This document shows positions 2,218 to 46,250 of a stretch of 50,248 nt of DNA, piece by piece; positions within the stretch are counted from its first letter, which is position 1; every line of letters begins with the position of its first letter. The position numbers and the translations under genes are program-made. Where the stretch lies: positions 1-50,248 of the IMG/VR virus record IMGVR_UViG_3300026320_000003, one strand, 5' to 3'. The notes under the pieces were generated by a model that was not told the origin of the DNA, did no database searches, and was given only the letters and a program-made list of their open reading frames with translations. This DNA comes from a virus (taxonomy: Duplodnaviria; Caudoviricetes).

Positions 2218-3944
2218 TGCGCCAAATAAGTGAAGCCGACTACTCCTTCCGCCGATACTCCGAAGGTCGCCTAATCGGCCTTCGCGTCAATCGCTATTCC
2301 TGGTGGACCCACTGGCGAGAACTTGCTGATTACTTCCTTCCGAGGAGATACAAATGGATCGTGACTCCAAACCAAATGGCTCGCGGATCGCCGATCAATC
2401 AACATATCTTAGATTCATCGGGATGTATCTTTGCAAGAAACTTGGCATCAGGTTTAGTGAGTGGGAAATCCTCTCCAACACGGCCTTGGTTCAAGTTGAA
2501 GATTGGCAGACTAGACTCGACCCAGACCTCCCCTATCTCTCTTTGGTTAGCAGAATGCGAGAGGCTTCTATATCTGATTTTCGCTGAGTCCAACTTCTAC
2601 AACGCCATCGCCGTCTTCTATTTCGACCTTGTCATCTTTGGCACAGCCGTCCTCTTGATCTACGAAGACTTCGAAAACGTAATCAATTGCTTCAACCCCT
2701 GCGCCGGTGAATATTACGTCGACATCGACGGTAAATACCGCCCTTGCATCTTCTACCGTGAATTCACCATGACGATCTCAGCCGTCGTCAACGAATTCGG
2801 CATCGACAACGTCTCAGAGAATATCGCCAGACTCTACAAACAAACCGACGGCGCCAACCTCACTCGCGAAGTCATTGTAGCCCACTCTATCGAACCCAAC
2901 GACGATGGCAAGGTTGCAGAGTTCGGCTTCTCCAACAAGTTCACCTATCGAGAAGCCTATTGGGAATGGGGCGGGTCTGCCTCTCCACAAGGCGGCGCCT
3001 CCTCCCCTCCTGGCTTCCTCCGCAAGCGAGGCTACTTTGAACAACCCAACATCTGTACTCGCTGGGACCTTGTCTCCAATGATCCCTATGGGCGATCCCC
3101 AGCCATGGACGGCCTACCAGATCAAAAGCAACTCCAACTCGAATCGCGCCGCAAGGCCCAAGCGATCGACAAGATGGTAAACCCGCCCCTTGTCGCTGAT
3201 ATCCAACTAAAGAACCAACCTGCCTCACTCCTCCCAGGAGGAATCACCTATGTCTCTGGCTACGCCGCTTCAGGCAAACCTGGCTTCTCCAGCGTCTACG
3301 ATACCAAGTTCCCAGTCGGCGAAATCACCGAGGACCTTAACGAAGTTCGAGAACGACTCAAGAAGACTTTCTTCAACGATGTCCTCAATACCGCATCTCA
3401 GTATGAAACCCGTTCTAATGTCACAGCAGTTGAGTGGGACATGCGGAAAAGTGAGTCTTTGGTCATGCTCGGTCCAGCCCTCGAGCGAATCGACAACGAA
3501 GGTCTCAAGCCAATCATCGAACGAGTCTTCGCCATAGCTGCCCGGGCTGGCATCTTCCCTCCAGCCCCAGATGAAATCGCTGGCAAGAACCTGGACATTG
3601 AATTCGTCTCGATGCTTCAACAAGCCCAACAAGCCACCGCAGCCGCAGGGATCGAACGCATGTTCGCCATTGCTGGAAACATCGCCGGAATCGATCCAGC
3701 CGGTGTTGACAATATCGACTTCGATTATGGACTTGACAAAATGTCTTTCCTCCTGAATAATGATCCTAAGCTTATCCGTTCACCCGAAGCTTTGGCCTCT
3801 ATCCGTCAACGTCGAGAACAACAACAAATGCAAGCCGAACGTGCAGCCCAGGCGGAGCAACTTGCCAAGGCCGCCAAAGTCGCTAGCGAAACCCAAGTCG
3901 GTGGCGGCCAATCCGCTTTGCAAAGCATGGGAATTGGACAATGA
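2217..3944 (+). CDS. Portal (head-to-tail connector) protein
   Basis: 575 aa; HWRELADYFLP, DLVIFGTA, YGRSPAM, VNPP and VTAVE motifs of the T7 gp8/BPP-1-type portal; Gln-rich C-terminus. Confidence 0.93.
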   Translation: MRQISEADYSFRRYSEGRLIGLRVNRYSWWTHWRELADYFLPRRYKWIVTPNQMARGSPINQHILDSSGCIFARNLASGLVSGKSSPTRPWFKLKIGRLDSTQTSPISLWLAECERLLYLIFAESNFYNAIAVFYFDLVIFGTAVLLIYEDFENVINCFNPCAGEYYVDIDGKYRPCIFYREFTMTISAVVNEFGIDNVSENIARLYKQTDGANLTREVIVAHSIEPNDDGKVAEFGFSNKFTYREAYWEWGGSASPQGGASSPPGFLRKRGYFEQPNICTRWDLVSNDPYGRSPAMDGLPDQKQLQLESRRKAQAIDKMVNPPLVADIQLKNQPASLLPGGITYVSGYAASGKPGFSSVYDTKFPVGEITEDLNEVRERLKKTFFNDVLNTASQYETRSNVTAVEWDMRKSESLVMLGPALERIDNEGLKPIIERVFAIAARAGIFPPAPDEIAGKNLDIEFVSMLQQAQQATAAAGIERMFAIAGNIAGIDPAGVDNIDFDYGLDKMSFLLNNDPKLIRSPEALASIRQRREQQQMQAERAAQAEQLAKAAKVASETQVGGGQSALQSMGIGQ

Positions 3945-19782: not shown

Positions 19783-20329
19783 TCCATTTACCTGGGCTGC
19801 AATTGGAGCTGGGAGTTCTATCCTAGGTGGTGGGGTACAAGCCTATGGGGCCTTGCAGAAGGGCTCCGCAGATCAGGCGATGTATAACTACCAAGCCGGT
19901 GTCGCCAAGCTTAATCAGAAGATTGCTCTACAGAATGCCTCCTATGCCCAAGAAGCCGGTGGCTCCGCAGCCTACCAATCTGGGCTTAAGACCGCAGCTA
20001 CTGTAGCACAACAGAAAGTAGATCAATCTGCGTCTGGATTTGATGTCGCTGGAGGATCAGCAGCTGGGGTCAGACAATCTACCACTGCACTCGGCGTCTA
20101 TGACCAGAACCTAATCCGTACCAACTTCGCCAAGAAGGCTTATGGGTTCGAAGTCGAAGCGGCTACTAAAGGCGCCGAAGCTGGGGCGGATGTGATCGCT
20201 GGGGCTCAGGCGAAGAAGGCGGGAGATATCTCTGCTGTGGCTTCCATCCTTGGCACGGCTGGGTCGGTATCTTCTAAGTGGCTTCAAGCTTCATCAAGCT
20301 TCGGCAAGAACGCTTTAGCGGAGACCTAG
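19775..20329 (+). CDS. Internal virion (ejection) protein, gp14-like
   Basis: Gly/Ala-rich with hydrophobic termini, SASGFDVAGGS; synteny. Confidence 0.72.
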   Translation: MADPFTWAAIGAGSSILGGGVQAYGALQKGSADQAMYNYQAGVAKLNQKIALQNASYAQEAGGSAAYQSGLKTAATVAQQKVDQSASGFDVAGGSAAGVRQSTTALGVYDQNLIRTNFAKKAYGFEVEAATKGAEAGADVIAGAQAKKAGDISAVASILGTAGSVSSKWLQASSSFGKNALAET

Positions 20330-22087
20330 TTGGCCCAAGTCCCCTATACTGGTGTTCCATCCCAAACTCTACAGGACATCCCCACTCCTGAGATGCAGCC
20401 GCGTGTTCCTTCGGCTGCCTTCGGCGGTGAGGTAGCACAAGCTATCTCTGGATTAGGTCATACAGTAGCTGGTGCTGGCGATGAAATCTTTGCTAGGGCT
20501 GTCGCCTTACAGAATCTCCAAAACGAAGCTGAGGCTACTGAGGCTGACGCTAAGTACATGCAGGCTGCTGGTGATCTTCATGCCGAATTCAATGCCAAGC
20601 AAGGGAAGGAACGGGTTGATGCGTATCCTAAGTACAAACAGGATTTAGATACAGCTAGGCAAAGTATTCGTGGTGGCCTATCTTCGCCTATGTCCCAGAA
20701 GATGTTCGATCGATCATCTCTATCCACTATGGGCCGATCGATCTTCAATGGTGCCGGTGTAGCTGCCGAAGGTCAACGACAGTATGTTATTCAATCGGCT
20801 GTATCTCAATCAAAGCTAGATGCCAACACCGTCTCTGAAAACCCAGATGATCCAAATACCTTCCAAGATAAGCTTCAACAAGCAAGAAAGAATGCCATCA
20901 CTATATCAGCAGCCAAGGGCAATCCAGAAGGCAGTCCGCAAGAACAATTGGAGATCAAGAATGCTGTAAGCAATCTCTATTATAGTAAAATCGATGGTAA
21001 GGCCAACAAGGATCCCTACACTGCTAGCAAATGGCTAACGAAGTATAGAACCGAACTAAACGATGAGGACTTGCCTAAGCTTGAGCTTAAGGTTAGAAAC
21101 CAAGCTCGGGCTATTGACGCCCAGAATATCGCCAATGAAATTTACAATGAAGGCAAGGCTGGGCCAGGCAAGCCTGGAAAGTCTGCTGTTGAGATGGAAG
21201 AAGCAGCAAACGCTAGGGCCAAAGAGCATGATCCTGATGATCCAGTCTTAGCTCAACATACTCGTGCTGCGGTGCAGAATTTAGTTAGCCGGAACAGGTA
21301 CAATGAAGCTCAGGAGGATCACGCCAATACTTCAATCATCAATCGAAAGATCGTTGGCGGGGTGGCGAGTGAGCAAGAACTCAGGGCCGATCCTGTAGCT
21401 GCTAAGGCTGCGGATGACTTGATCGCCAGTGGTAAGAAGCTCAATCTTGGTGCTGAGATTAACAACTATAACACCGCTCGTGATCGCAAAGACAATATGG
21501 AGCGTTTCAATACCATTATGGGTTCGGCTAATAATGATGTTGAAAGCTTCCTTAATTACAATCCTCGTGCCGACCAGAAGCTTAGTCAGAGCCAAATTAA
21601 CTCCGTGATCGCCAAGCAGGAGCAGTTCAAGAAACAAATCGCTCAAGACCCAAGGGTCGATCGCGCCATGAGCTGGCTTCGCACTGGCAAGTCAGCTGAA
21701 ATGGGGGAGAGTGGCCTTAATCTTATGCATCGAAAAGGCCACGAAGATGACTACGACCGTTTGACTGGAGCAGTTCAATCTTCTCTGGATATTTGGATAG
21801 AGAATCATAATAAACCGCCTAGCAATAAGGAGTTCCTCGAACAGATCGCTCCGCAGCTACTTCAAGAACATGCTGCGCCAGGAACCTTTGGTTATCTCTT
21901 TGGTGGCACTAAAGAACCATTCTTCAAACCGGATACTAGCACTAAGGATTATATAAACTTCGCCAAGAGTGAAAAGCAGAAGGCTTTGGATAGCAGCCGT
22001 GCAGAACCAACTGACGCACAACTTGACCGGGCCTATACTCGTGTTCAACTACTTAGACTCTATCCCGGAAAGGCTACTGGGAAATGA
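20330..22087 (+). CDS. Internal virion (ejection) protein, gp15-like
   Basis: 585 aa helical protein, TTG start after GGAG; synteny. Confidence 0.68.
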   Translation: MAQVPYTGVPSQTLQDIPTPEMQPRVPSAAFGGEVAQAISGLGHTVAGAGDEIFARAVALQNLQNEAEATEADAKYMQAAGDLHAEFNAKQGKERVDAYPKYKQDLDTARQSIRGGLSSPMSQKMFDRSSLSTMGRSIFNGAGVAAEGQRQYVIQSAVSQSKLDANTVSENPDDPNTFQDKLQQARKNAITISAAKGNPEGSPQEQLEIKNAVSNLYYSKIDGKANKDPYTASKWLTKYRTELNDEDLPKLELKVRNQARAIDAQNIANEIYNEGKAGPGKPGKSAVEMEEAANARAKEHDPDDPVLAQHTRAAVQNLVSRNRYNEAQEDHANTSIINRKIVGGVASEQELRADPVAAKAADDLIASGKKLNLGAEINNYNTARDRKDNMERFNTIMGSANNDVESFLNYNPRADQKLSQSQINSVIAKQEQFKKQIAQDPRVDRAMSWLRTGKSAEMGESGLNLMHRKGHEDDYDRLTGAVQSSLDIWIENHNKPPSNKEFLEQIAPQLLQEHAAPGTFGYLFGGTKEPFFKPDTSTKDYINFAKSEKQKALDSSRAEPTDAQLDRAYTRVQLLRLYPGKATGK

Positions 22088-25000
22088 GTAACACCGACTT
22101 CGACGAGGACTTTGATCCAACTAGCTATATAGCTCGACAGCAACAAGCTTCGAGAATGTATGCACTTGGATCGCTGGCTGACGATCCAGAAAAGGCTGCT
22201 AGGGCAGTAGAATTAGGTGATGCTACTGGCGATAAGCCTGCGTTGATTTATGGAAATTTAGAGAATTACGAAGAACAACACAAGGCTGCGTTGACTGCAT
22301 CTCTACTTAATTCAAACAAGTATCTCCGTGAGTACGTCGATGCTGATCCTATGCATGCCAAAATCTCTAACGATGACTACGGCAACCTCGATTCGCTTAG
22401 CGAATCTGTCCAAAAGCTATCTCTATCCCGTCCTGGCTATGCACCAGATGCTATAAGTGGAGCCCTTGCAGTTTTCAGTAGCTCTATTGCTGGAGGGGCC
22501 ATTACCGGCTTCAAGCGTGGATGGGCTAATGTCACCGACCCAAAGCATGTAACTGATGAAGACCTTAAGAACTATCCGCTCTTTACAGCCTTGATGCAAT
22601 CGGCTAGGTTCCCAGTCGATGTCGGTGGGGCATTACTTGAAGCAGGCATTGAAGCTATACATGCTGGAGCTAAGACTGGATACAAGCAGATCACTGGCGA
22701 TGAGATGGGGGCTGAAAGGTTCTCTCGTGATATCGCTGGTATGGCTGAGACAGTTCTTACCAATACCTCAGGCTATCATGGCATCCATGCACCTTCGCCT
22801 GCCCAGTTAGAAAAGGTCCATGGCATCCTCGACAAGGCCAAACCTTGGCTCGACGACTCCAAAGAACCCCCTCGTGGACTTGATCCTGAGATTGACAAAC
22901 TCAAGTTCGAACAAAACAAACTCGACCTGGACAATCTCGATGAAGCCCTTAAAGCTGCCCAAAGCTCTGCTACTCGTGAACGGTCGCCGGAGATTTTTGC
23001 TTCTTTCATTCGCCAGCATACTGATGCTAGTATTGGCATTTCTGGTGATGCTGTGGCTAAGCTTTATGGAGACAAGGTCCCCGAGGCCGGGGATAATATT
23101 CTTGGATGGTCCCCCAGGATTGCTGAGGAAATTCGAACCGCTGTAGCGACTGGTGGGGATGTACAAATTCCGTTGGCCGACTGGCTGGCGAAGGTTGATC
23201 CAGAGGTGGAGAAAGCGCTTCATGATGATATCCGGGTTAGGCCGGGAGGGATTACTAAGAATGAGCAAGAAATTGCAAAGGACTATATCGAAGGTGGGTA
23301 TAAGCCGGCCGAGATCATTCCTGAACCTGCCGACTTAGATGCACGTATAGACGCATTGTCAGAAGAACGCAATTCGCTTAATACTGAGGAATATCAAGGT
23401 GTTCCTAATACAAAGGTTGCTAAGGAGAATGTAGAATTAGCTAGGGCTTTAGAAACAGCACGTGCTGTTGGATTTAATCATGAACAAGCTATGGAATCTG
23501 CTAAATGGGCACTTGAAAATGGCCGTCCTGATATTGCACAAGTCCTAGTTGATCGTGCAGCCAAGCGAGCAGGAAAGCCTGCTAATGTTCCTGGCTTACC
23601 AGAAGGACATCCTAGATACGAGCAGGCTAAGGCACGCATTGCGGAATTAAAGGCAGAAGAACAAACTCAACTTAGTGAGATTAAGGCTGCTACTAAATTA
23701 GAATCTACTGAGGGTGCTATTCCTAAGCCCCCCGAAATCATCCCCGAACCTCTCCCCTCCGTTCGAGGCGCCAGTGGCCTTGAGCCGATGTTCTCCCAAG
23801 GCGATCGGAAGTTGACGCTGGAGAAACGGCCGCCAAGAGAGAAGGCACATGGCTTTTCCTTAGGCCCTGATGCATCGATTCCAGCCGATGAATTTAAGTT
23901 AATTGACGAAAACGGCAAGAACGCTGGCTGGCTAGAAGTAGTTCCATTCGATGGTGGTAAACGTCTATATGTAGACAACGTCGGTGGGTATGAGTCTAAG
24001 GGTTATGGCCCCAATGCCTTCGGTCCAGCCCTCACTCGGGATATCGCCCGCCAACTTAAGGAAGCCTATCCAGAAGCTACCCATATCGGCGGCTTCCGTA
24101 TCTCTGGAGCTAGAGAAAAGGCCGGGACGACTAGGGAGATTTGGATTAAGTTTGACGAGCTTGAAGGATCCAAGGGTGGGCTTTCACGAGGTTGGCTTCA
24201 TGAGATATTGAATCCTACTCAAACCTTTGATATAGGCAAAGCAGGCATCCTTCACTACAGTCCTGAGTTTGCACCGCATCAGGCCGAGGCTGATAAGATA
24301 ATCCGAGCTACCTTAGCCAGGATCGCTCCTGATGCACAGGTCTTTACCCCTAGTCATATTGAAGTCCCAGGTAAGCCCTTCGCTGTTCGTGGCGGCTTTA
24401 TGCTGCCAATGCTTAAGCAGAATCCTTGGATCGTTGTTGCACTAGATGCTGCTGATGCCCTCGGTGTAGCTCGTCATGAGGCAGTTCATTATCTTAAGCA
24501 GTTTGGGTTCTTCTCAGAGAAGGAATGGTTTAATCTAACTCGAGCAGCAAGGGATAATGACTGGATTAAGAAGTTTAGAATTGATGAGCGATACCCCGAC
24601 CTCGATATGCCAAGCAAGCTCGAAGAGGCGATCGCCGAGGGCTATCGAAATTGGGCTCGTGGTGAGGAAGTCCCATCACATCTCCACCCGATCTTCGAAC
24701 GATTGAAAGAACTCTTTGAATCCCTCAAATCTCAGCTTAAAGAACTCCTTGGCCGTGAGCCTACTTGGGAAGAACTCTTCCAGAAGATGGACACTGGCGA
24801 AGTTGGAGCGAGGAAGCCTAGGGGACATGAAGGTGGGGCGTTCCTTGAACCCAAGATGATGGAGGAACCAGAAAAGATAGTAGGTGCAACATTTACTATT
24901 GAAGGTCGTACTTTCACTGGAGCTAACCATGTCGAAGCAATGGAAAAGGCTAATAAAGAACTTGGAAGTGATGTGGTTGCCAACACATTCAGTAAATTGA

Positions 25001-28000
25001 TTTCTGCTGGTACACGGCGTGATGCAGATGGCTTTATGACTTCTACCGGCCGTGTAGTATCTCGCGATGAGGCAACAAAGATTAGTGAAGCGGCCGAGCA
25101 AGGAACTGCTGCACATCCGTCAGGGACATTAAAGGCCGAGGATATTGAGCCAAAGTTCTCCGTCGAAGACAAGCCCATGTTCGACAAGGCCGCTGCGGTT
25201 GGTATGACAGCGGATCAGTTCAAACGCTATATGAAGCTCATCGATCAACGCCACACCGAAGACCTAGCAGCAGCCCAGGCTCGAGCCGAAGCCGAACAGG
25301 GCAAGCGTCTCACCAAAGAATGGAAAGACAACGAGAAGCAAGTCCGTCAAGACGTTTCAGAGTCCATCCGCAATCGCCCAGACGTGGCTGCCGATCTCTT
25401 CTTTGGTGCTGGGGAACTCTATGGAAGTAAAATCGATGGTCGATTCAAGATTGGTGAGAAGTACCTGTCTCCAGAACAAAAGGCCAAGTTGCCTAGAAGC
25501 TACGTTTCTAAATCAGGCATTAACCCTGATGACTTTGCTGGTGAGTTCGGTTATAGTTCCGGCGACGCTATGATAGACCGGCTTGGCGAATATAATGAGG
25601 CCAAGCTCCAAGCTGGCATGTCTACCAAGGATTATGTCAAACGAGTCACCGATCTTGAAGTCGATCGCCAAATGCAAATCAAATACGGCTCGCTTGAGAA
25701 GTCCGTTCTCGAAGAAGCTCAGGACCAAGCAACCTCTGAAACCCAGGTCAATATCCTTCATGAGGAGACCTTAGCGCTAGCCTTGAGAAACAATGCCGAA
25801 GGTAGCATTTCCAAAGACGAGATCAGGTCTTGGGTCAAGCAAGAGTTCGCCAATAAGCCGATTGGCTCCATCTCCTTCGATTCCTACATGACCGCCATGG
25901 GCAAAGCTGGCCGGGCAGCCGAAGATGCTTTACTTAAAGGGGACTTCGCTGAGGCCTTCCGAGCGAAGCAACAGCAGTACGTCGGTATGCTCTATGCTCG
26001 CGAAGCCAAGCAGCTAGAGAAGGCCCGAACCCAATTCGACAAGTTCGCCAAACGCTACAACGTCCGTACGATAAAAGACCAGCCAGCCGAACGTCAAGCT
26101 TGGACTGATGCGATCCATGGTATCTTGCAACAGGTTGAGTTACCAACTGGTGGAAGGGATAGCGCCGAAGTTCTTGGGTCCCTATCAAAAGCTGGCTACA
26201 AGGACATAGCCAGCTTTATCCAAGCCAAGGAATTTCCCCAAGGCCTTGAAGGTCAGAGGCAGGCTATAATCCCCGTCGCCAATTTCCTCCTTGATGGCTC
26301 ATTCAAGAAGCCTTTGGATCAAGTCACCGCAGCTGAGTTTAAGGCTATTCACGATTCGGTTAAGACCTTAGATCACCAAGCCAAAGCAGAGTCCAAAGTA
26401 ATCAAGGGTGGCGAGAAGGCCGATCGTGAAGAGACGATGGATCAGTTGGTGAACCAAATCGAACAGCGGGCACCATCTAAAGAACTTCGAGTAGACCTGC
26501 TTCCGTCGAAGAATTACATGAAGCATTACCTTGCTTCTAGTATAAACCTAGAAACCATCTTCGATACCATTGACCGAAATAACCCAAGGGGATTGATGAA
26601 CCAAACCATCGTTCGCACCTTCACCGAACCGGCCAACGAAGAACGAGCCTTGTGGAATAAATTCGGTGATCGAATCAACGCTCTACCTAAAATCAAAAGC
26701 GCCAACAAACTCGTAGACAATCCCTTCTTCAAGGACCCCCGCACTGGCGAGTTAATGATATTCTCTCGACGGAATGTTCTCACCGTTCTACAGAATATGG
26801 GTAATCCAGGAAACTTCTACGGCCTGCTTCGTGGGTATGGCATCAAGGACGCAATGGCCCCGGCAGTGAAGGATTGGGTTTGGCGGAATGTAGACAAGGA
26901 AGATGTCCAACGTGCTAAGATGCTTGGTAGTATACTTGAGGATTCCAAACACGACCATGCCGACCCTATGTATCGCTATATGACTGGGATCGAACCGCCA
27001 GAGATAGACCTCTGGACGGTCGATGCGCCAGCAACTCATGGTGGCCCTATCGAAGGTTGGTACCATCCCATTATCTACGACCTAAACATGCCGCAAAAGA
27101 GTGCAAAGCTCGCTGGGCAGAATGTTATCGAGCAGCCTTATTACGTCAAGCGCACTCCAACCTCTGGATACACTCAGGTTCGTACTGGCTATACCGGCCC
27201 CTACTCCTTACAACTGGATGGAGTTCAGACTCGTCTTGGTCAAGTCATCCACGATGCCGTTTGGCGACCAGCGTTGGATCAACTGACCAAGATTTTCATG
27301 GACCAAAGATTTCAAACCGCTATGCAAAAGCATTGGGGGAAGGAATACGCAGATCAACTTGAACCATTTCTTCGATCCATCGCCGGGACCGGCGAGTTCA
27401 CTAGTGAATCCCAAGCTGTGGTTTTACATGCTATTCAATTCGTCAGGACTAATATGCTTAGCCACTTGGTTGGATTGAATCCTTCAACCTTCGCCAAGCA
27501 TACATTTACAGCTGCTGTTAATAGTATCACCCAAGTCGGCCTTAGAAACTATGCTGATGCTCAAGCAGCTATGTTCGCGCGTAATCCGGCGACCGGTGAG
27601 ACTAATTGGACATGGCACATTAACGATAGTGAAGAACTTCAAGGTAGACATCGGCACTTTATCGACACCGTTCGTGGAAGCTTCGAAGCCACCTATGGTC
27701 ATCTTGCGGCGGCTAATGATATGAAAAGCTTCTTAGATAACTTCGAAGGGCGGTCATTGAAGGAAGGTGTCCGGGCCGCTGCTTCTGATGTTAAAGCCAA
27801 GTATCTATCGATCCGTGAAGCTCTGATGTACATCGAATCTGCACCCTTAGCCTACGGTGATCTATTCACTGCTGTGCCTACTCGGTACGCAGCATACGAA
27901 AAGGCTATAGCCGAAGGAGCCGATCGAGGCCAAGCCAAGTTCGAAGCCGATCGTGCTGTGCGTATGGCGCATGGGTCTACGGCTTTAACAAACCGACCAC

Positions 28001-43870: not shown

Positions 43871-43899
43871 ATTATACCACATCCAGTCCGAAAAGTCAA
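43871..43899 (-). promoter_or_regulatory. Sigma70 promoter for the replication operon
   Basis: TTGACT-17 nt-TATAAT with extended -10 TG. Confidence 0.85.
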
Positions 43900-43920
43900 G
43901 TTCTTATTTGGCTTATAGGC

Positions 43921-43954
43921 AAATAAAAAGGGCCAGCGGATTAGGCTGGCCCTT
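43921..43954 (-). terminator. Rho-independent terminator
   Basis: AAGGGCCAGC-loop-GCTGGCCCTT followed by a T run. Confidence 0.85.
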
Positions 43955-44372: not shown

Positions 44373-45119
44373 TTAGAAACCAGAGGCTCGTTCATTCTTT
44401 CGATTATACCACTGGTACCATTCGTGAGACCAGCGGAGTTCAGGCTCGGGTTCGACATCGGCTTGGGTAGGCTCAGAGGGGGCAGATGGAGTATCCACGC
44501 TTTCGGCAGTAGAAGCAACGGGAGACGTAGAGGCCTCTGATGATATTGCAGGAGGAGGGCTTTCACTCTGACCCTGTGGTGCATCGGCAGGCTCGAAGTT
44601 ATCAGGATTATTGAAGTCCCCTGTGGCTGTATCCTGCTGATAGATTACAGGATTAACCTGCTCTGGCTCAGAGGGAATAGCCTGTGGTAGCTCAGGCACC
44701 GGCTCAATAGCCTTAGGATACCAAGCATCAGTAGCAAAGTCATAGTCAAGCCCTTCTCGATTAGGCTCCGGCGCCTTAACCGGTTCAGGCTTGGATGGAT
44801 TAAGCAAGGACATAGCAGCAGCAGCCGCTACCTCAGCCTGCTTAATGAAAGACAAAGCCGTGTGGGCCAAATCCTCACTCTCCAAAACACGAAAGCTTGC
44901 TTCATCACGCTCTACCTCCAGAGAGCGGACCGTGGCTTGAAGGTCGTCAATCTGTTTCTTGTAGGAGATAATATTGATCTCAAGATAGGCGTTATGATCT
45001 TGAGTTGCGCCGAGTTGGGTCTTAAGAGCCTCGATCTGATCTTGCAAGACCGGGTTCTCTTCCATGGCTTTCGCCATTGCCACGAGATCGTGGACAAAGT
45101 TCGCAACGTGGGGTGACAT
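44373..45119 (-). CDS. Coiled-coil protein with disordered acidic/Pro-rich C-terminus
   Basis: GGAG RBS; 248 aa. Confidence 0.75.
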   Translation of the reverse strand: MSPHVANFVHDLVAMAKAMEENPVLQDQIEALKTQLGATQDHNAYLEINIISYKKQIDDLQATVRSLEVERDEASFRVLESEDLAHTALSFIKQAEVAAAAAMSLLNPSKPEPVKAPEPNREGLDYDFATDAWYPKAIEPVPELPQAIPSEPEQVNPVIYQQDTATGDFNNPDNFEPADAPQGQSESPPPAISSEASTSPVASTAESVDTPSAPSEPTQADVEPEPELRWSHEWYQWYNRKNERASGF

Positions 45120-45182
45120 TGAACTACTCCGTTCTAGTGAAGGCTTATTCCTTCACTCTGTGAAAAGAGGCGAGGATATCGG

Positions 45183-45412
45183 GGACATTTGTTGCTGTTT
45201 ACAGCGATTGGCTATAAGCTGCTACAGGCTCATGCGTCCTGTTACGCACTTACGGCTATAGCCGTCCTTTGCTACCCTCGTTTGGGTCTACTGGACCCGG
45301 AGACTTGGACCTAGTGTATCCTGAGATTGTGTGGGGAAGATCGGGCTGCCGCCCATGTTATGGGCAACGCACTTACGGCCTTCTTCGTTCCCGTTCTCAT
45401 TGCTACACTAGG
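45183..45412 (-). ncRNA. Candidate two-domain structured RNA
   Basis: Nested stems, with motif GCCGTAAGTGCGT-hairpin-RGCAGC present twice. Confidence 0.5.
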
Positions 45413-45448
45413 GTAGAGGTATTGGTAGGGGCCAAGAGGCCCTCAACC

Positions 45449-46069
45449 TTAGTGAGCCGTGGCGGACACTCCCGCCTTTGGCTTCGCTCGCGGTGCGACC
45501 TTCCCCGCCTGAGTCTTAGACAGGGTGGACTTCTTCTTAGCATTGGCTTCGGCTGCTTTCGCAACCAGCTTCGGGCTTTCCTTAATCAAGGACTTGATAA
45601 GGTCAACCTTTACAGGCACCTTAGCACGTTCCTCAAGGTTAGCCTTGGCTTGTTCGACAATGCTTGGATCTTGCGCAAGCATTTCATTAGCCGCAGCGGT
45701 GATTTCCTTAGGCTCGACATGGGATATCTTCATCCCTGCCGCCTTGATCCCGTCTTTAACGAGGTTCTTGGCAAGCCGTCGGGCTTCGGTCATGACCGCA
45801 GCACTTTCGCCTGTCTTGGCCTTTTTGGCGAGGAAACGGATTTTCCCCGTCATAATTGCTTCGACATTCTTCTCAGCTTGAGCCATCGCTAGGGATGCAA
45901 GTTCTTCCGCATCCTTCGTGCTGGCTTTGGTAATCTTGCTCATACCACGATTAGCAAGTTCTTTAAGGCCGAGAAGCAAGGCCTCAGCGTAAACTTCCTC
46001 TGGAAGGTCATCGGTTTGAAACTTAACCGTGTCCTTACCTTTCGTGATAGGAACCGTGAGTTCAGCCAT
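45449..46069 (-). CDS. Lys/Ala-rich basic protein (possible nucleoid/DNA-binding)
   Basis: AGGTGA RBS; basic C-terminal tail. Confidence 0.75.
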   Translation of the reverse strand: MAELTVPITKGKDTVKFQTDDLPEEVYAEALLLGLKELANRGMSKITKASTKDAEELASLAMAQAEKNVEAIMTGKIRFLAKKAKTGESAAVMTEARRLAKNLVKDGIKAAGMKISHVEPKEITAAANEMLAQDPSIVEQAKANLEERAKVPVKVDLIKSLIKESPKLVAKAAEANAKKKSTLSKTQAGKVAPRAKPKAGVSATAH

Positions 46070-46250
46070 TAGTTTCACCTTTCGCTGTACTCTTATTAAC
46101 CGGATAGGCGCAAGGTGAGTTAGCGATAGTCATAGGGGAATGAGGGAGTCTTTATGTCCGCGTTGGGCTACCTAGAGGTAGCGCTTCGCTTACAATACTC
46201 GATCAGATAACTCCTCGTATCCTCGCCTTCTGGCTTTGGTCCGGGTGTGC

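Follow-up and report, generated by a model that had tools for sequence, protein, structure and literature searches.

Only a handful of the structured RNAs in virulent phages are understood, hardly any of them from soil or freshwater phages without cultured hosts. Two described systems stand nearest to the RNA presented here. Dunn and Studier are said to have found the RNase III processing signals R0.3, R0.5, R1.1 and R1.3 in the early polycistronic mRNA of phage T7. The gaps between T7 genes fold into hairpins with a common AAGGUC...GGCCUUUAUGAUU, which we take to be the RNase III sites, these being unannotated in the T7 record. Phage HK022 has putL and putR, two-hairpin antiterminator RNAs that act in cis in early transcripts and have no promoter of their own. 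The locus considered here is in the phage genome of IMG/VR record IMGVR_UViG_3300026320_000003, the whole of which (50,248 bp) is referred to as the window. It occupies a gap of 329 nt on the - strand, from the stop codon of a 209-aa open reading frame (ORF; TAA, 45451-45449) to the ATG of a 248-aa ORF (45119-45117). This gap carries a conserved, strand-specific RNA of several helices, composed of a long-class unit, a hairpin with a CAGUA loop, and a short-class unit. The whole element is about 240 bases long, has two domains, and keeps its place, flanked by the same pair of early genes, across a large group of uncultured phages. We rate it as a new family of conserved structured RNA in phage intergenic regions, with above-average support.

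Like the T7 signals, the RNA presents a hairpin with an internal loop between the cistrons of a polycistronic phage mRNA, and in both the stems vary between copies while the surroundings of the internal loop are kept. There is no likeness of sequence or of loop, however, and T7 has a site at many gene boundaries where this RNA has one locus per genome. The smallest units, of about 12 bp and a loop, are also probably short for RNase III. The put RNAs share with the window RNA the presence of two hairpins inside an early phage transcript, but many relatives of the window RNA have a single unit. A covariance model of the short-class unit (R2, see below), run with filters off over HK022 20000-34000 (14 kb, from int to the O/P region), gave at best 10.2 bits (E 0.19), at a position that is implausible for put; the positions of the put sites, which are unannotated in the HK022 record, are presumed.

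There are no matches to Rfam 15 in the window at the gathering score. At E<10, the gap gives noise only, the best scores being 13-15 bits against thresholds of 60-80, and in 20 diverse related loci there are no Rfam matches at E≤0.1. Among the papers listed by literature searches on the topic and on the core strings, none is relevant to this RNA. A survey reporting about 10,000 candidate structured RNAs from IMG/VR (Fremin, Bhatt and Kyrpides 2023, PMC10690425) deals with the same type of object from the same data source. The core strings are absent from the six supplementary files searched and the section titles show no discussion of the motif, which may sit unnamed in that list.

Architecture of the RNA

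The core of each unit consists of P1 (7-10 bp, free in sequence), the loop strand AGYAA, P2 (4-5 bp, UNNG/CNNA), a variable interior, P2', (G)GAU, and P1'. The internal loop between P1 and P2 is invariant and asymmetric (5'-AGYAA / 3'-NGAU). In the long class, P2 and a following AAY lead into P3, then ACG(C)AAGA and one further nucleotide, a hairpin (P4), YGAUCU, an A/C-rich strand (CACACAA), and P2', with the last U of YGAUCU opening P3'. The register of P4 is fixed in 31 of 34 long-class units, where it begins 1 nt past AAGA and stops exactly at YGAUCU. The short class has P1, the loop, P2, and a variable interior with an ACAA end, and nothing more.

A hairpin of 4-5 bp with a loop of the CAGUA/CAGCA type is present 1-4 nt 5' of 24 of the 38 short-class units, as against 2 of the 33 long-class units. 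Its stems vary yet pair, being GGGUC/GACCC, GAUGC/GCAUC, GCCUC/GAGGC, GGCCC/GGGCC, and AUCGC/GCGAU in different units. Unit size ranges from 43 to 130 nt, and the smallest (43-47 nt, L075 and L074) are plain bulged hairpins. In the window the long unit is followed by the CAGUA hairpin and then by the short unit (Table 1).

Covariation and folding energy

Pairing was assessed in a MAFFT alignment of 34 long-class units (A3) and in an alignment of 37 short-class units (A4). In A3, 98.0% of 590 cells are paired, there are double changes at 16 of 18 pairs, and the covariation score is 0.705, compared with 0.167 in shuffled alignments (0.705 was reached in none of 500) and at most 0.119 with slid partners. 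P1 belonged to the rule by which units were selected, so its pairing is partly by construction. P2 and P3 are outside this rule; they are 97.8% and 100% paired, with four of four and three of four pairs doubly changed, respectively. The short-class alignment gives 97.9% pairing with covariation at 13 of 15 pairs, and a model-fitted alignment of 106 distinct R2 matches gives 98.3% pairing and a covariation score of 0.808 versus 0.183. Many of the sequences are closely related, which means that the cell counts overstate the number of independent events, yet the P1 sequences are highly diverse despite the kinship of many units. G-U pairs are present in the helices.

The loop itself scarcely varies. 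Across the 106 R2 matches the 5' strand has A in 106, G in 105, C in 101 and U in 5, A in 106, and A in 106, and the 3' strand has G in 97, C in 7, and A in 2, then G, A, and U in 106 each, the AGUAA variant of the loop being under-sampled by R2. P1 was checked independently by scanning viral contigs for the pattern AGCAATGAG-N10-40-CTCAGGAT, which takes no account of neighbouring proteins. Flanking complementarity was bimodal among the 120 matches listed, at 0-4 bp in 90 and at 6-9 bp in 30.

The folding z-score of the whole gap is -4.9 on the - strand and -3.1 on the + strand. Domain 1 alone has a z-score of -4.75 and domain 2 alone one of -3.9.

Relatives and placement

Relatives were gathered through the 209-aa protein, four at first and, with alignment A1, 56 loci in viral contigs and the best 80 of 116 loci in metagenome contigs. 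Some contigs are shared by the viral and metagenome collections, and the counts given here rest on 56 and 76 sources. Identity of the 209-aa homologues to that of the window runs from 97% down to about 30%. There is a non-coding gap after the 209-aa gene in every related locus, and the closest of these gaps align to that of the window in patches.

Covariance models with structure lines set by the authors were built from A3 (R1) and from A4 (R2). On both strands of the 50 kb window R1 matches only 45309-45413, and R2 only 45311-45411 and 45171-45280 (scores in Table 1). At E≤1, R1 has 51 matches in the 56 viral sources and 73 in the 76 metagenome sources; the corresponding figures for R2 at E≤0.1 are 41 and 72. 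All of these matches are on the strand of the genes and directly 3' of the 209-aa gene, and there is no match to either model elsewhere in about 368 kb of related loci, searched on both strands. At least one match at E≤0.01 is present in 42 of 56 viral and 53 of 76 metagenome loci (95/132), and several of the loci without a match end some tens of bases past the 209-aa gene. A simple descriptor (A[AG][CT]AA ... GAT, with at least 6 consecutive flanking pairs) identifies 69 units in 56 of 103 distinct gaps. It finds none on the reverse complements, in 102 upstream coding segments, or in 73 downstream segments, and in 50 shuffles it finds a mean of 0.48 and at most 2. In five complete relatives, R2 matches at the syntenic site alone (1 and 2 matches); three of the five have no R2 match at E≤0.01, and R1 finds units of the AGUAA type there.

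The first unit is usually 9-100 nt past the stop codon and in many relatives 9-10 nt, too close to allow it a promoter of its own. The last unit and the next start codon are 2 to 489 nt apart across the relatives. In the close relatives L088 (917-1070) and L112 (358-510) the 209-aa gene is separated from the RNA by an extra ORF of about 45 codons, and the RNA follows the stop of that ORF. In L027/L063 (the same contig, ~3650-3860) there is no model match, and the gap has several copies of AGCAAUGA / GAUCAAUGA in other hairpins, which are possibly a degenerate or alternative form of the element.

The scan made without reference to the protein gave at least 30 well-formed units. Full flanks are available for 22 of these, and in 17 of the 22 a homologue of the 209-aa gene is directly upstream on the same strand. 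The units of L178, L191, L210, and L212 (~1192-1266) have a P1 of 8-9 bp and are in other phage backgrounds (contigs of 31-87 kb) beside unrelated neighbours; in three of these four the unit ends about 20 nt ahead of the next start codon. L281, a locus of 631 nt only, has a short unit (293-339, 39.6 bits) upstream of the start of a 209-aa homologue.

A search of prokaryote genomes (596 Gb) with the pattern AGCAATGAGC-N8-38-AGCTCAGGAT, which fits 11 of 30 well-formed viral units, gave 32 matches, all with 0-2 bp of flanking complementarity as expected by chance, and thus no real units. As far as the collections show, the family would seem to belong to phages that are not seen as prophages in reference genomes. 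A nucleotide search with the gap found no match in cultured phages, and a narrow pattern for domain 1 recovered only the contig already known.

An earlier note on this DNA, made from the sequence alone, had proposed a structured RNA of two related domains on the - strand of a gap of about 330 nt between genes, not recognised as a known riboswitch or ribozyme, and had suggested protein binding, antitermination, a sponge, or a ribozyme as possible functions. The 329 nt gap and the Rfam comparison agree with this, folding energy, covariation, and strand-specific model matches support the RNA, and both domains carry the AGYAA/NGAU core loop. Homologues, on which the proposal had been made to depend, were found, and P1, P2, and P3 covary among them. 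The end of the element had been placed at 45183, which is 12 nt short of its actual extent to 45171.

Apical inserts and the repeated 13-mer

It is in the identity of the core that the earlier note has to be revised. A duplicated GCCGUAAGUGCGU...RGCAGC had been taken as the defining feature of the RNA, together with a 13-mer shared by both domains. The 13-mer, GCCGTAAGTGCGT, does occur exactly twice on the - strand (Table 1), and an exact match was seen in none of 100 dinucleotide shuffles; with up to two mismatches allowed the test is weak, as there are at least two matches in 12 of 100 shuffles. Relatives, however, hold unrelated hairpins at this position, down to GC-UUCG-GC. What both domains have in common, over more than 100 sequences, is not the 13-mer but the AGYAA/NGAU loop that separates P1 from P2. 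The 13-mer module is a lineage-specific peripheral element that is present twice in this phage and is not what defines the RNA, although it may be meaningful locally.

The stems that had been drawn for domain 1 are all there and have comparative support, as P1 (CCUAGUGU/ACACUAGG and an A-U pair), P2 (UGAGA/UCUCA), P3 (GGGAA/UUCCC), and the base of P4 (GGC/GCC). Those drawn for domain 2 (GGCUAUA/UAUAGCC, GC/GC, and ACAGG/CCUGU) also exist, but they sit in a lineage-specific insert, and the conserved outer P1 and P2 had been overlooked. For domain 2, ViennaRNA favours GUGCGU/ACGCAU over ACAGG/CCUGU, and these predicted helices could be either alternatives or parts of a pseudoknot. Both copies of the module can be drawn alike, with a closing GC/GC, a 9-nt bulge CGUAAGUGC opposite a single A, and a helix starting with G-C and U-G.

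Among all of the loci collected, the module (its 11-nt core, with up to two substitutions) is found elsewhere in a unit only in domain 1 of L086. This is the nearest relative, with a 209-aa homologue 97% identical to that of the window. Its domain 1 has an altered inner hairpin (GCUCAU AGC AUGGGC) with the module kept, and its domain 2 has a different insert, so that the module is present in domain 2 in the window only. A scan of viral contigs for the exact module gave 22 stretches, none of them in a unit-like context by inspection, and these were taken as chance. In L021/L022 the inner hairpin is present and the AGYAA/NGAU frame is absent.

The P4 hairpins of the relatives include GC-UUCG-GC (L100), GCCUCGGC (L096, L097, L104), a perfect 15-bp stem (L030), and longer cassettes, and the interior of domain 2 is as changeable as P4. 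In the close relatives L092, L094, L088, L095, L091, and L112, cassettes recur in varied combinations in P4 and in the interiors of domain 2. For example, an insert beginning GGCCUGUCUAAUCGUGACUGUAGGCC... is in domain 2 of L088, L091, and L112, and one beginning GCGGUGUAAAGGGUAAGCGAAAGC... is in domain 1 of L088 and L095. The recurrence of cassettes in new combinations would suggest recombination between phages within the RNA.

Comparison with known motifs

The loop between P1 and P2 bears some resemblance to the bulged-G motif (sarcin-ricin or loop E type), which has the consensus AGUA/GAA; such loops are typical sites of protein binding or of tertiary contact. The likeness, which is one of resemblance only, is in a 5' A-G-U/C-A and a 3' G-A of the same letters and polarity, flanked by helices. 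The unit loop differs in having mostly C for U (101/106), an extra A, an extra N, and a 3' U that is able to pair with the first A.

Domain IV of the signal recognition particle (SRP) 4.5S RNA of Escherichia coli (ACCA-GGU-CAGG...AGCA-GCC-A), which has the loops that bind Ffh, when read from the other end, has the strand order of the unit: AGCA, a short helix, and an A-rich short strand on one side, and an A/C-rich long strand, a short helix, and AGG on the other. The two differ in their loops (4x4 in the SRP, 5x4 in the unit), in helix length, and in a permuted topology, and there is no Rfam SRP match. A mimic of the SRP was rejected, since the first G of the AGG is variable in the units (G 97, C 7, A 2) and the loop sizes differ; the A ahead of this G covaries as part of a pair. 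The likeness is rated as coincidence.

Kink-turns have a three-nucleotide bulge followed by tandem sheared G-A/A-G pairs. By eye, the 5' strand of the P1/P2 loop has no GA where it is needed. In the long-class junction both strands carry GA (AAGA-M / Y-GAUCU), but there the bulge length and the flanking pairs do not fit with the covarying P3. Repeats of the repetitive extragenic palindrome (REP), bacterial interspersed mosaic element (BIME), and miniature inverted-repeat transposable element (MITE) kinds differ from the RNA, which has one locus per genome and a fixed gene strand and is not found in prokaryote genomes. Antitoxins of the ToxI type and mimics of CRISPR (clustered regularly interspaced short palindromic repeats) repeats differ too, because the two domains are not near-identical: they share only the core loop, along with the 13-mer module in this lineage, and their helices differ.

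Features of the locus and its neighbours

The coordinates of the RNA, of its parts, and of the flanking features are given in Table 1.

Table 1. Features of the RNA locus and flanking genes in the window, with minimum free energy abbreviated as MFE
Feature	Position	Strand	Basis or description
209-aa gene, upstream	45449..46078	-	Conserved, mostly helical, Lys/Ala-rich, disordered basic tail; genomic marker for the RNA
Hairpin GGGCC-UCUU-GGCCC	45429..45442	-	7 nt past the stop of the 209-aa gene; sequence and MFE fold
Domain 1, long-class unit	45310..45412	-	R1 74.2 bits, E 1e-16; R2 49.6 bits; covariation; P4 register
Domain 1 P1	45412-45405 with 45317-45310	-	
Domain 1 loop, AGCAA opposite GGAU	45404-45400 opposite 45321-45318	-	
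Domain 1 P2	45399-45395 with 45326-45322	-	
Domain 1 P3	45392-45388 with 45338-45334	-	
Domain 1 junction, CGAAGA-A opposite CGAUCU	45387-45381 opposite 45343-45338	-	
Domain 1 P4 base, GGC with GCC	45380-45378 with 45346-45344	-	
Domain 1 apical insert, GGC-CGUAAGUGCGUU-[GCCCAU AAC AUGGGC]-GGCA-GCC	45344..45380	-	13-mer copy 1 at 45379-45367
Domain 1 CACACAA strand	45333-45327	-	
Linker hairpin, GGGUC-CAGUA-GACCC	45284..45298	-	3 nt 5' of domain 2; fold and pairing in relatives
Domain 2, short-class unit	45171..45280	-	R2 34.4 bits, E 2.6e-8; covariation
Domain 2 P1, CGAGGGU/AUCCUCG	45280-45274 with 45177-45171	-	
Domain 2 loop, AGCAA opposite CGAU	45273-45269 opposite 45181-45178	-	
Domain 2 P2, GGAC with GUCC	45267-45264 with 45186-45183	-	
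Domain 2 interior	insert helix 45263-45210; hairpin 45205-45194	-	Hairpin is GCUGU-AAA-CAGC; then ACAAAU
Domain 2 insert, GGCUAUA-GC-CGUAAGUGCGUA-[ACAGG...CCUGU]-AGCA-GC-U-UAUAGCC	45210..45263	-	13-mer copy 2 at 45256-45244; 'domain 2' of the earlier note
5' leader of the 248-aa gene	45120..45170	-	Pyrimidine tract, hairpin, Shine-Dalgarno; AUG 45119-45117 just beyond
Pyrimidine tract, CCUCUUUUCA	45170-45161	-	
Leader hairpin, GUGAAGG-AAUAAG-CCUUCAC	45156-45137	-	
Shine-Dalgarno, GGAG	45130-45127	-	
248-aa gene, downstream	44373..45119	-	Poorly conserved; 18-23% identity among 5 syntenic proteins

The hairpin at 45429..45442 is not a typical intrinsic terminator, as there is no U-run after it, and at its position the relatives show other hairpins or none. 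In the leader of the 248-aa gene, the hairpin is compensated in close relatives, where GUGGGAG/CUCCCAC replaces GUGAAGG/CCUUCAC. The MFE fold of the leader pairs CUCU/UUC of the pyrimidine tract with GAA/GGAG, by which the Shine-Dalgarno is predicted to be sequestered. A U/C-rich tract past the last unit is common across the family and irregular. The 50 nt past the last unit are only mildly C-rich (C 0.30, G 0.21), and the idea of a Rho site was set aside.

There are no PHROG or Pfam matches for the 209-aa protein. Its structure model has a pLDDT (predicted local distance difference test) of 81. Against the PDB there is no sequence match below E 0.36 and no Foldseek match at E≤0.001, the BFVD matches are unnamed viral proteins only (best E 2.5e-3, template modelling score 0.25-0.30), and the ESM Atlas has unnamed viral clusters only. 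The protein is absent from 50,697 records of cultured phages (by tblastn) and from 185,579 prokaryote species, each represented by one genome. The 248-aa protein likewise has no PHROG or Pfam match, and a pattern search gave 7 matches, none confirmed as relatives; we read it, from its sequence, as a probable coiled-coil protein.

As a phage record the window is complete, and it has direct terminal repeats. Among the sequencing runs listed as holding it, the eight entries are soil DNA assemblies, two of which may be its source, and none is of RNA. Genes for terminase, portal, capsid, and tail lie on the + strand, and the portal shares only about 33-38% identity with its counterparts in Bordetella BPP-1, Vibrio, Cobetia, and other podophages. 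On the - strand, from about 48.4 kb to 30.9 kb, small early genes come first and are followed by genes for a helicase, a PD-(D/E)XK nuclease, a Sak4-like protein, a split family-A DNA polymerase, and a primase. Consensus scans identify a sigma-70-like promoter at 48206-48178 (-), with 11 of 12 matches to the sigma-70 consensus, and a terminator-like site at 43954-43928 on the - strand. With the region lying between these two sites, the simplest reading places the gap inside an early operon, which would mean that the RNA is made as part of an early mRNA.

The terminator-like hairpin (10 pairs, then UUUAUUU) is followed immediately by a strong sigma-70-like promoter (TTGACT-17-TATAAT with TG), and this stretch, 43871-43954 (-), appears to mark where the early unit gives way to the replication genes. 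Two ORFs (32024-34665, -) make up the family-A DNA polymerase. The upstream one (33547-34665) joins a domain of the uracil-DNA-glycosylase superfamily to a 3'-5' exonuclease, and the polymerase domain is in the downstream one (32024-33550). The structural module contains an ORF of 2210 aa (22084-28716, +) whose sole match is PHROG 9880 (unknown function), over residues 1030-2002, and whose product may be an injected or internal virion protein.

Possible functions

The reading preferred here, which is held tentatively, is that the RNA is a cis-acting element of the early polycistronic mRNA and would serve as a platform recognised by protein. Contact would be made at the invariant loop and at the ACG(C)AAGA/YGAUCU junction, and binding or cleavage there would set the fate of both flanking cistrons. 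The 3' end of the 209-aa message may be protected and/or the translation of the 248-aa gene, for which pairing between the ribosome-binding site and the pyrimidine tract is predicted, may be controlled. The partner could be the 209-aa product, or else a host RNA-binding protein or nuclease. The invariant unpaired nucleotides in helices of free sequence, the placement between two cistrons with no room for a promoter, the single locus per genome, and the linkage to one early gene all point in this direction.

Several observations weigh against it. Spacing as variable as 2-489 nt to the next start codon ill suits a simple translational operator, and if the RNA were a general processing signal, several gene boundaries should carry it, as in T7, rather than one locus per genome. 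The pairing of the Shine-Dalgarno comes from one MFE fold, and in the fold of the whole gap GGAG pairs with another CUCC. No recognisable RNA-binding fold was found in the 209-aa protein by the PDB sequence, Foldseek, BFVD, and ESM Atlas searches. The conserved junction nucleotides and the ornate architecture would suit a ribozyme or ligand sensor equally well. Five well-formed units (L178, L191, L200, L210, and L212, of which L200 is the weakest) are behind unrelated genes, and the unit of L281 is directly in front of the 209-aa gene, so a strict one-to-one tie of the RNA to the 209-aa protein fails. The upstream proteins of L178 and L212 are not even distantly related to the 209-aa family (about 0.1% probability in hhalign), and among the neighbours of the exceptional units Pfam identifies a methyltransferase and an AlpA-like regulator only.

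There are other explanations. A bolder one, and a doubtful one, is that the RNA and the basic helical 209-aa protein form an early ribonucleoprotein found only in phages, for example a decoy or scaffold by which a host process is taken over, or that the long-class unit is a new small ribozyme or ligand sensor. It is a little harder still to believe in a stable non-coding RNA, cut from the early transcript and acting in trans as a decoy or sponge for a host protein or as a ribonucleoprotein subunit with the 209-aa protein. Tandem units with one invariant loop, the compact and stable architecture seen in the z-scores of the two domains, and the tight linkage to a basic protein of unknown function would agree with this, as would restriction to phages, with at least 30 units in viral contigs and none that is real in prokaryotes; no promoter or terminator of its own is seen, however, and many relatives make do with a single unit. 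Control of transcription is unlikely, whether through put-like modification of the polymerase for read-through of terminators downstream or through a factor-controlled attenuator in which the last P1 and the pyrimidine or U-rich tract form a terminator. The site in an early operon upstream of the terminator-like 43954-43928, the two hairpin domains, and the U/C-rich tract that abuts P1' of the last unit in many loci (such as CACUCAGG-UUUCUUUC and ACCCUCG-CCUCUUUUCA) are what it can draw on. Against it are the poor R2 score on HK022, the many loci of one unit, the only mild C-richness after the last unit, and the form of the tracts, which are interrupted and often offset by 2-4 nt and so are poor intrinsic terminators.

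Clustering of invariant unpaired nucleotides at junctions (AGYAA/NGAU, ACG(C)AAGA/YGAUCU, and ACAA) among helices of free sequence and a peripheral helix of varying length would also be expected of a new class of riboswitch or self-cleaving ribozyme, with the junction nucleotides as pocket or active site and P4 as a peripheral part. A tandem arrangement is known from some riboswitches, which counts in the same direction. This is nevertheless improbable. There is no expression platform conserved across the family, there is no match to a ribozyme or riboswitch in Rfam, and the minimal units are plain bulged hairpins. The neighbouring genes in particular make a riboswitch unlikely, those downstream being non-metabolic, weakly conserved, of unknown function, and dependent on context, with the start codon at variable spacing. 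That the duplicated module of the earlier note is itself the functional core, as a tandem binding site, is very improbable. The exact 13-nt repeat, the 9-nt bulge and opposing single A kept in both copies while the inner hairpins differ, and the retention of the module in L086 with a changed inner hairpin speak for it, but the module is otherwise missing from the collected loci, 31 other long-class units have unrelated hairpins in its position, down to a UUCG tetraloop, and the 22 exact matches in viral contigs have no unit context. As the core of the family it is largely refuted, and it could be a lineage-specific add-on. Least probable of all is an element acting at the level of DNA, such as a replication or packaging signal of single-strand hairpins or a selfish repeat of the REP or MITE kind. 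The intergenic DNA is rich in hairpins, and the invariant GATC of the long class could, on its sequence, be a methylation site. The element is, however, always on the strand of the flanking genes, its G-U pairs would become C-A mismatches if the opposite strand were the folded one, and it is undispersed, at one syntenic locus per genome, and absent from prokaryote genomes.

Conclusions

The comparative support for this RNA is unusually good, with more than 100 distinct sequences, three covarying helices and two accessory hairpins, and nine invariant loop nucleotides. Its strict specificity of strand and position and its absence from the genomes of 185,579 prokaryote species add to this. The locus also demonstrates that a striking local repeat can flag a real element and yet misidentify its core. 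At 43-130 nt, each unit is small enough for direct biochemistry, the swappable apical inserts reveal which parts are dispensable, and the linkage to a conserved protein of unknown fold offers a concrete hypothesis of binding. If the RNA does form a dedicated ribonucleoprotein, or is a ribozyme or sensor, it would represent a new functional class of RNA that is restricted to virulent phages.

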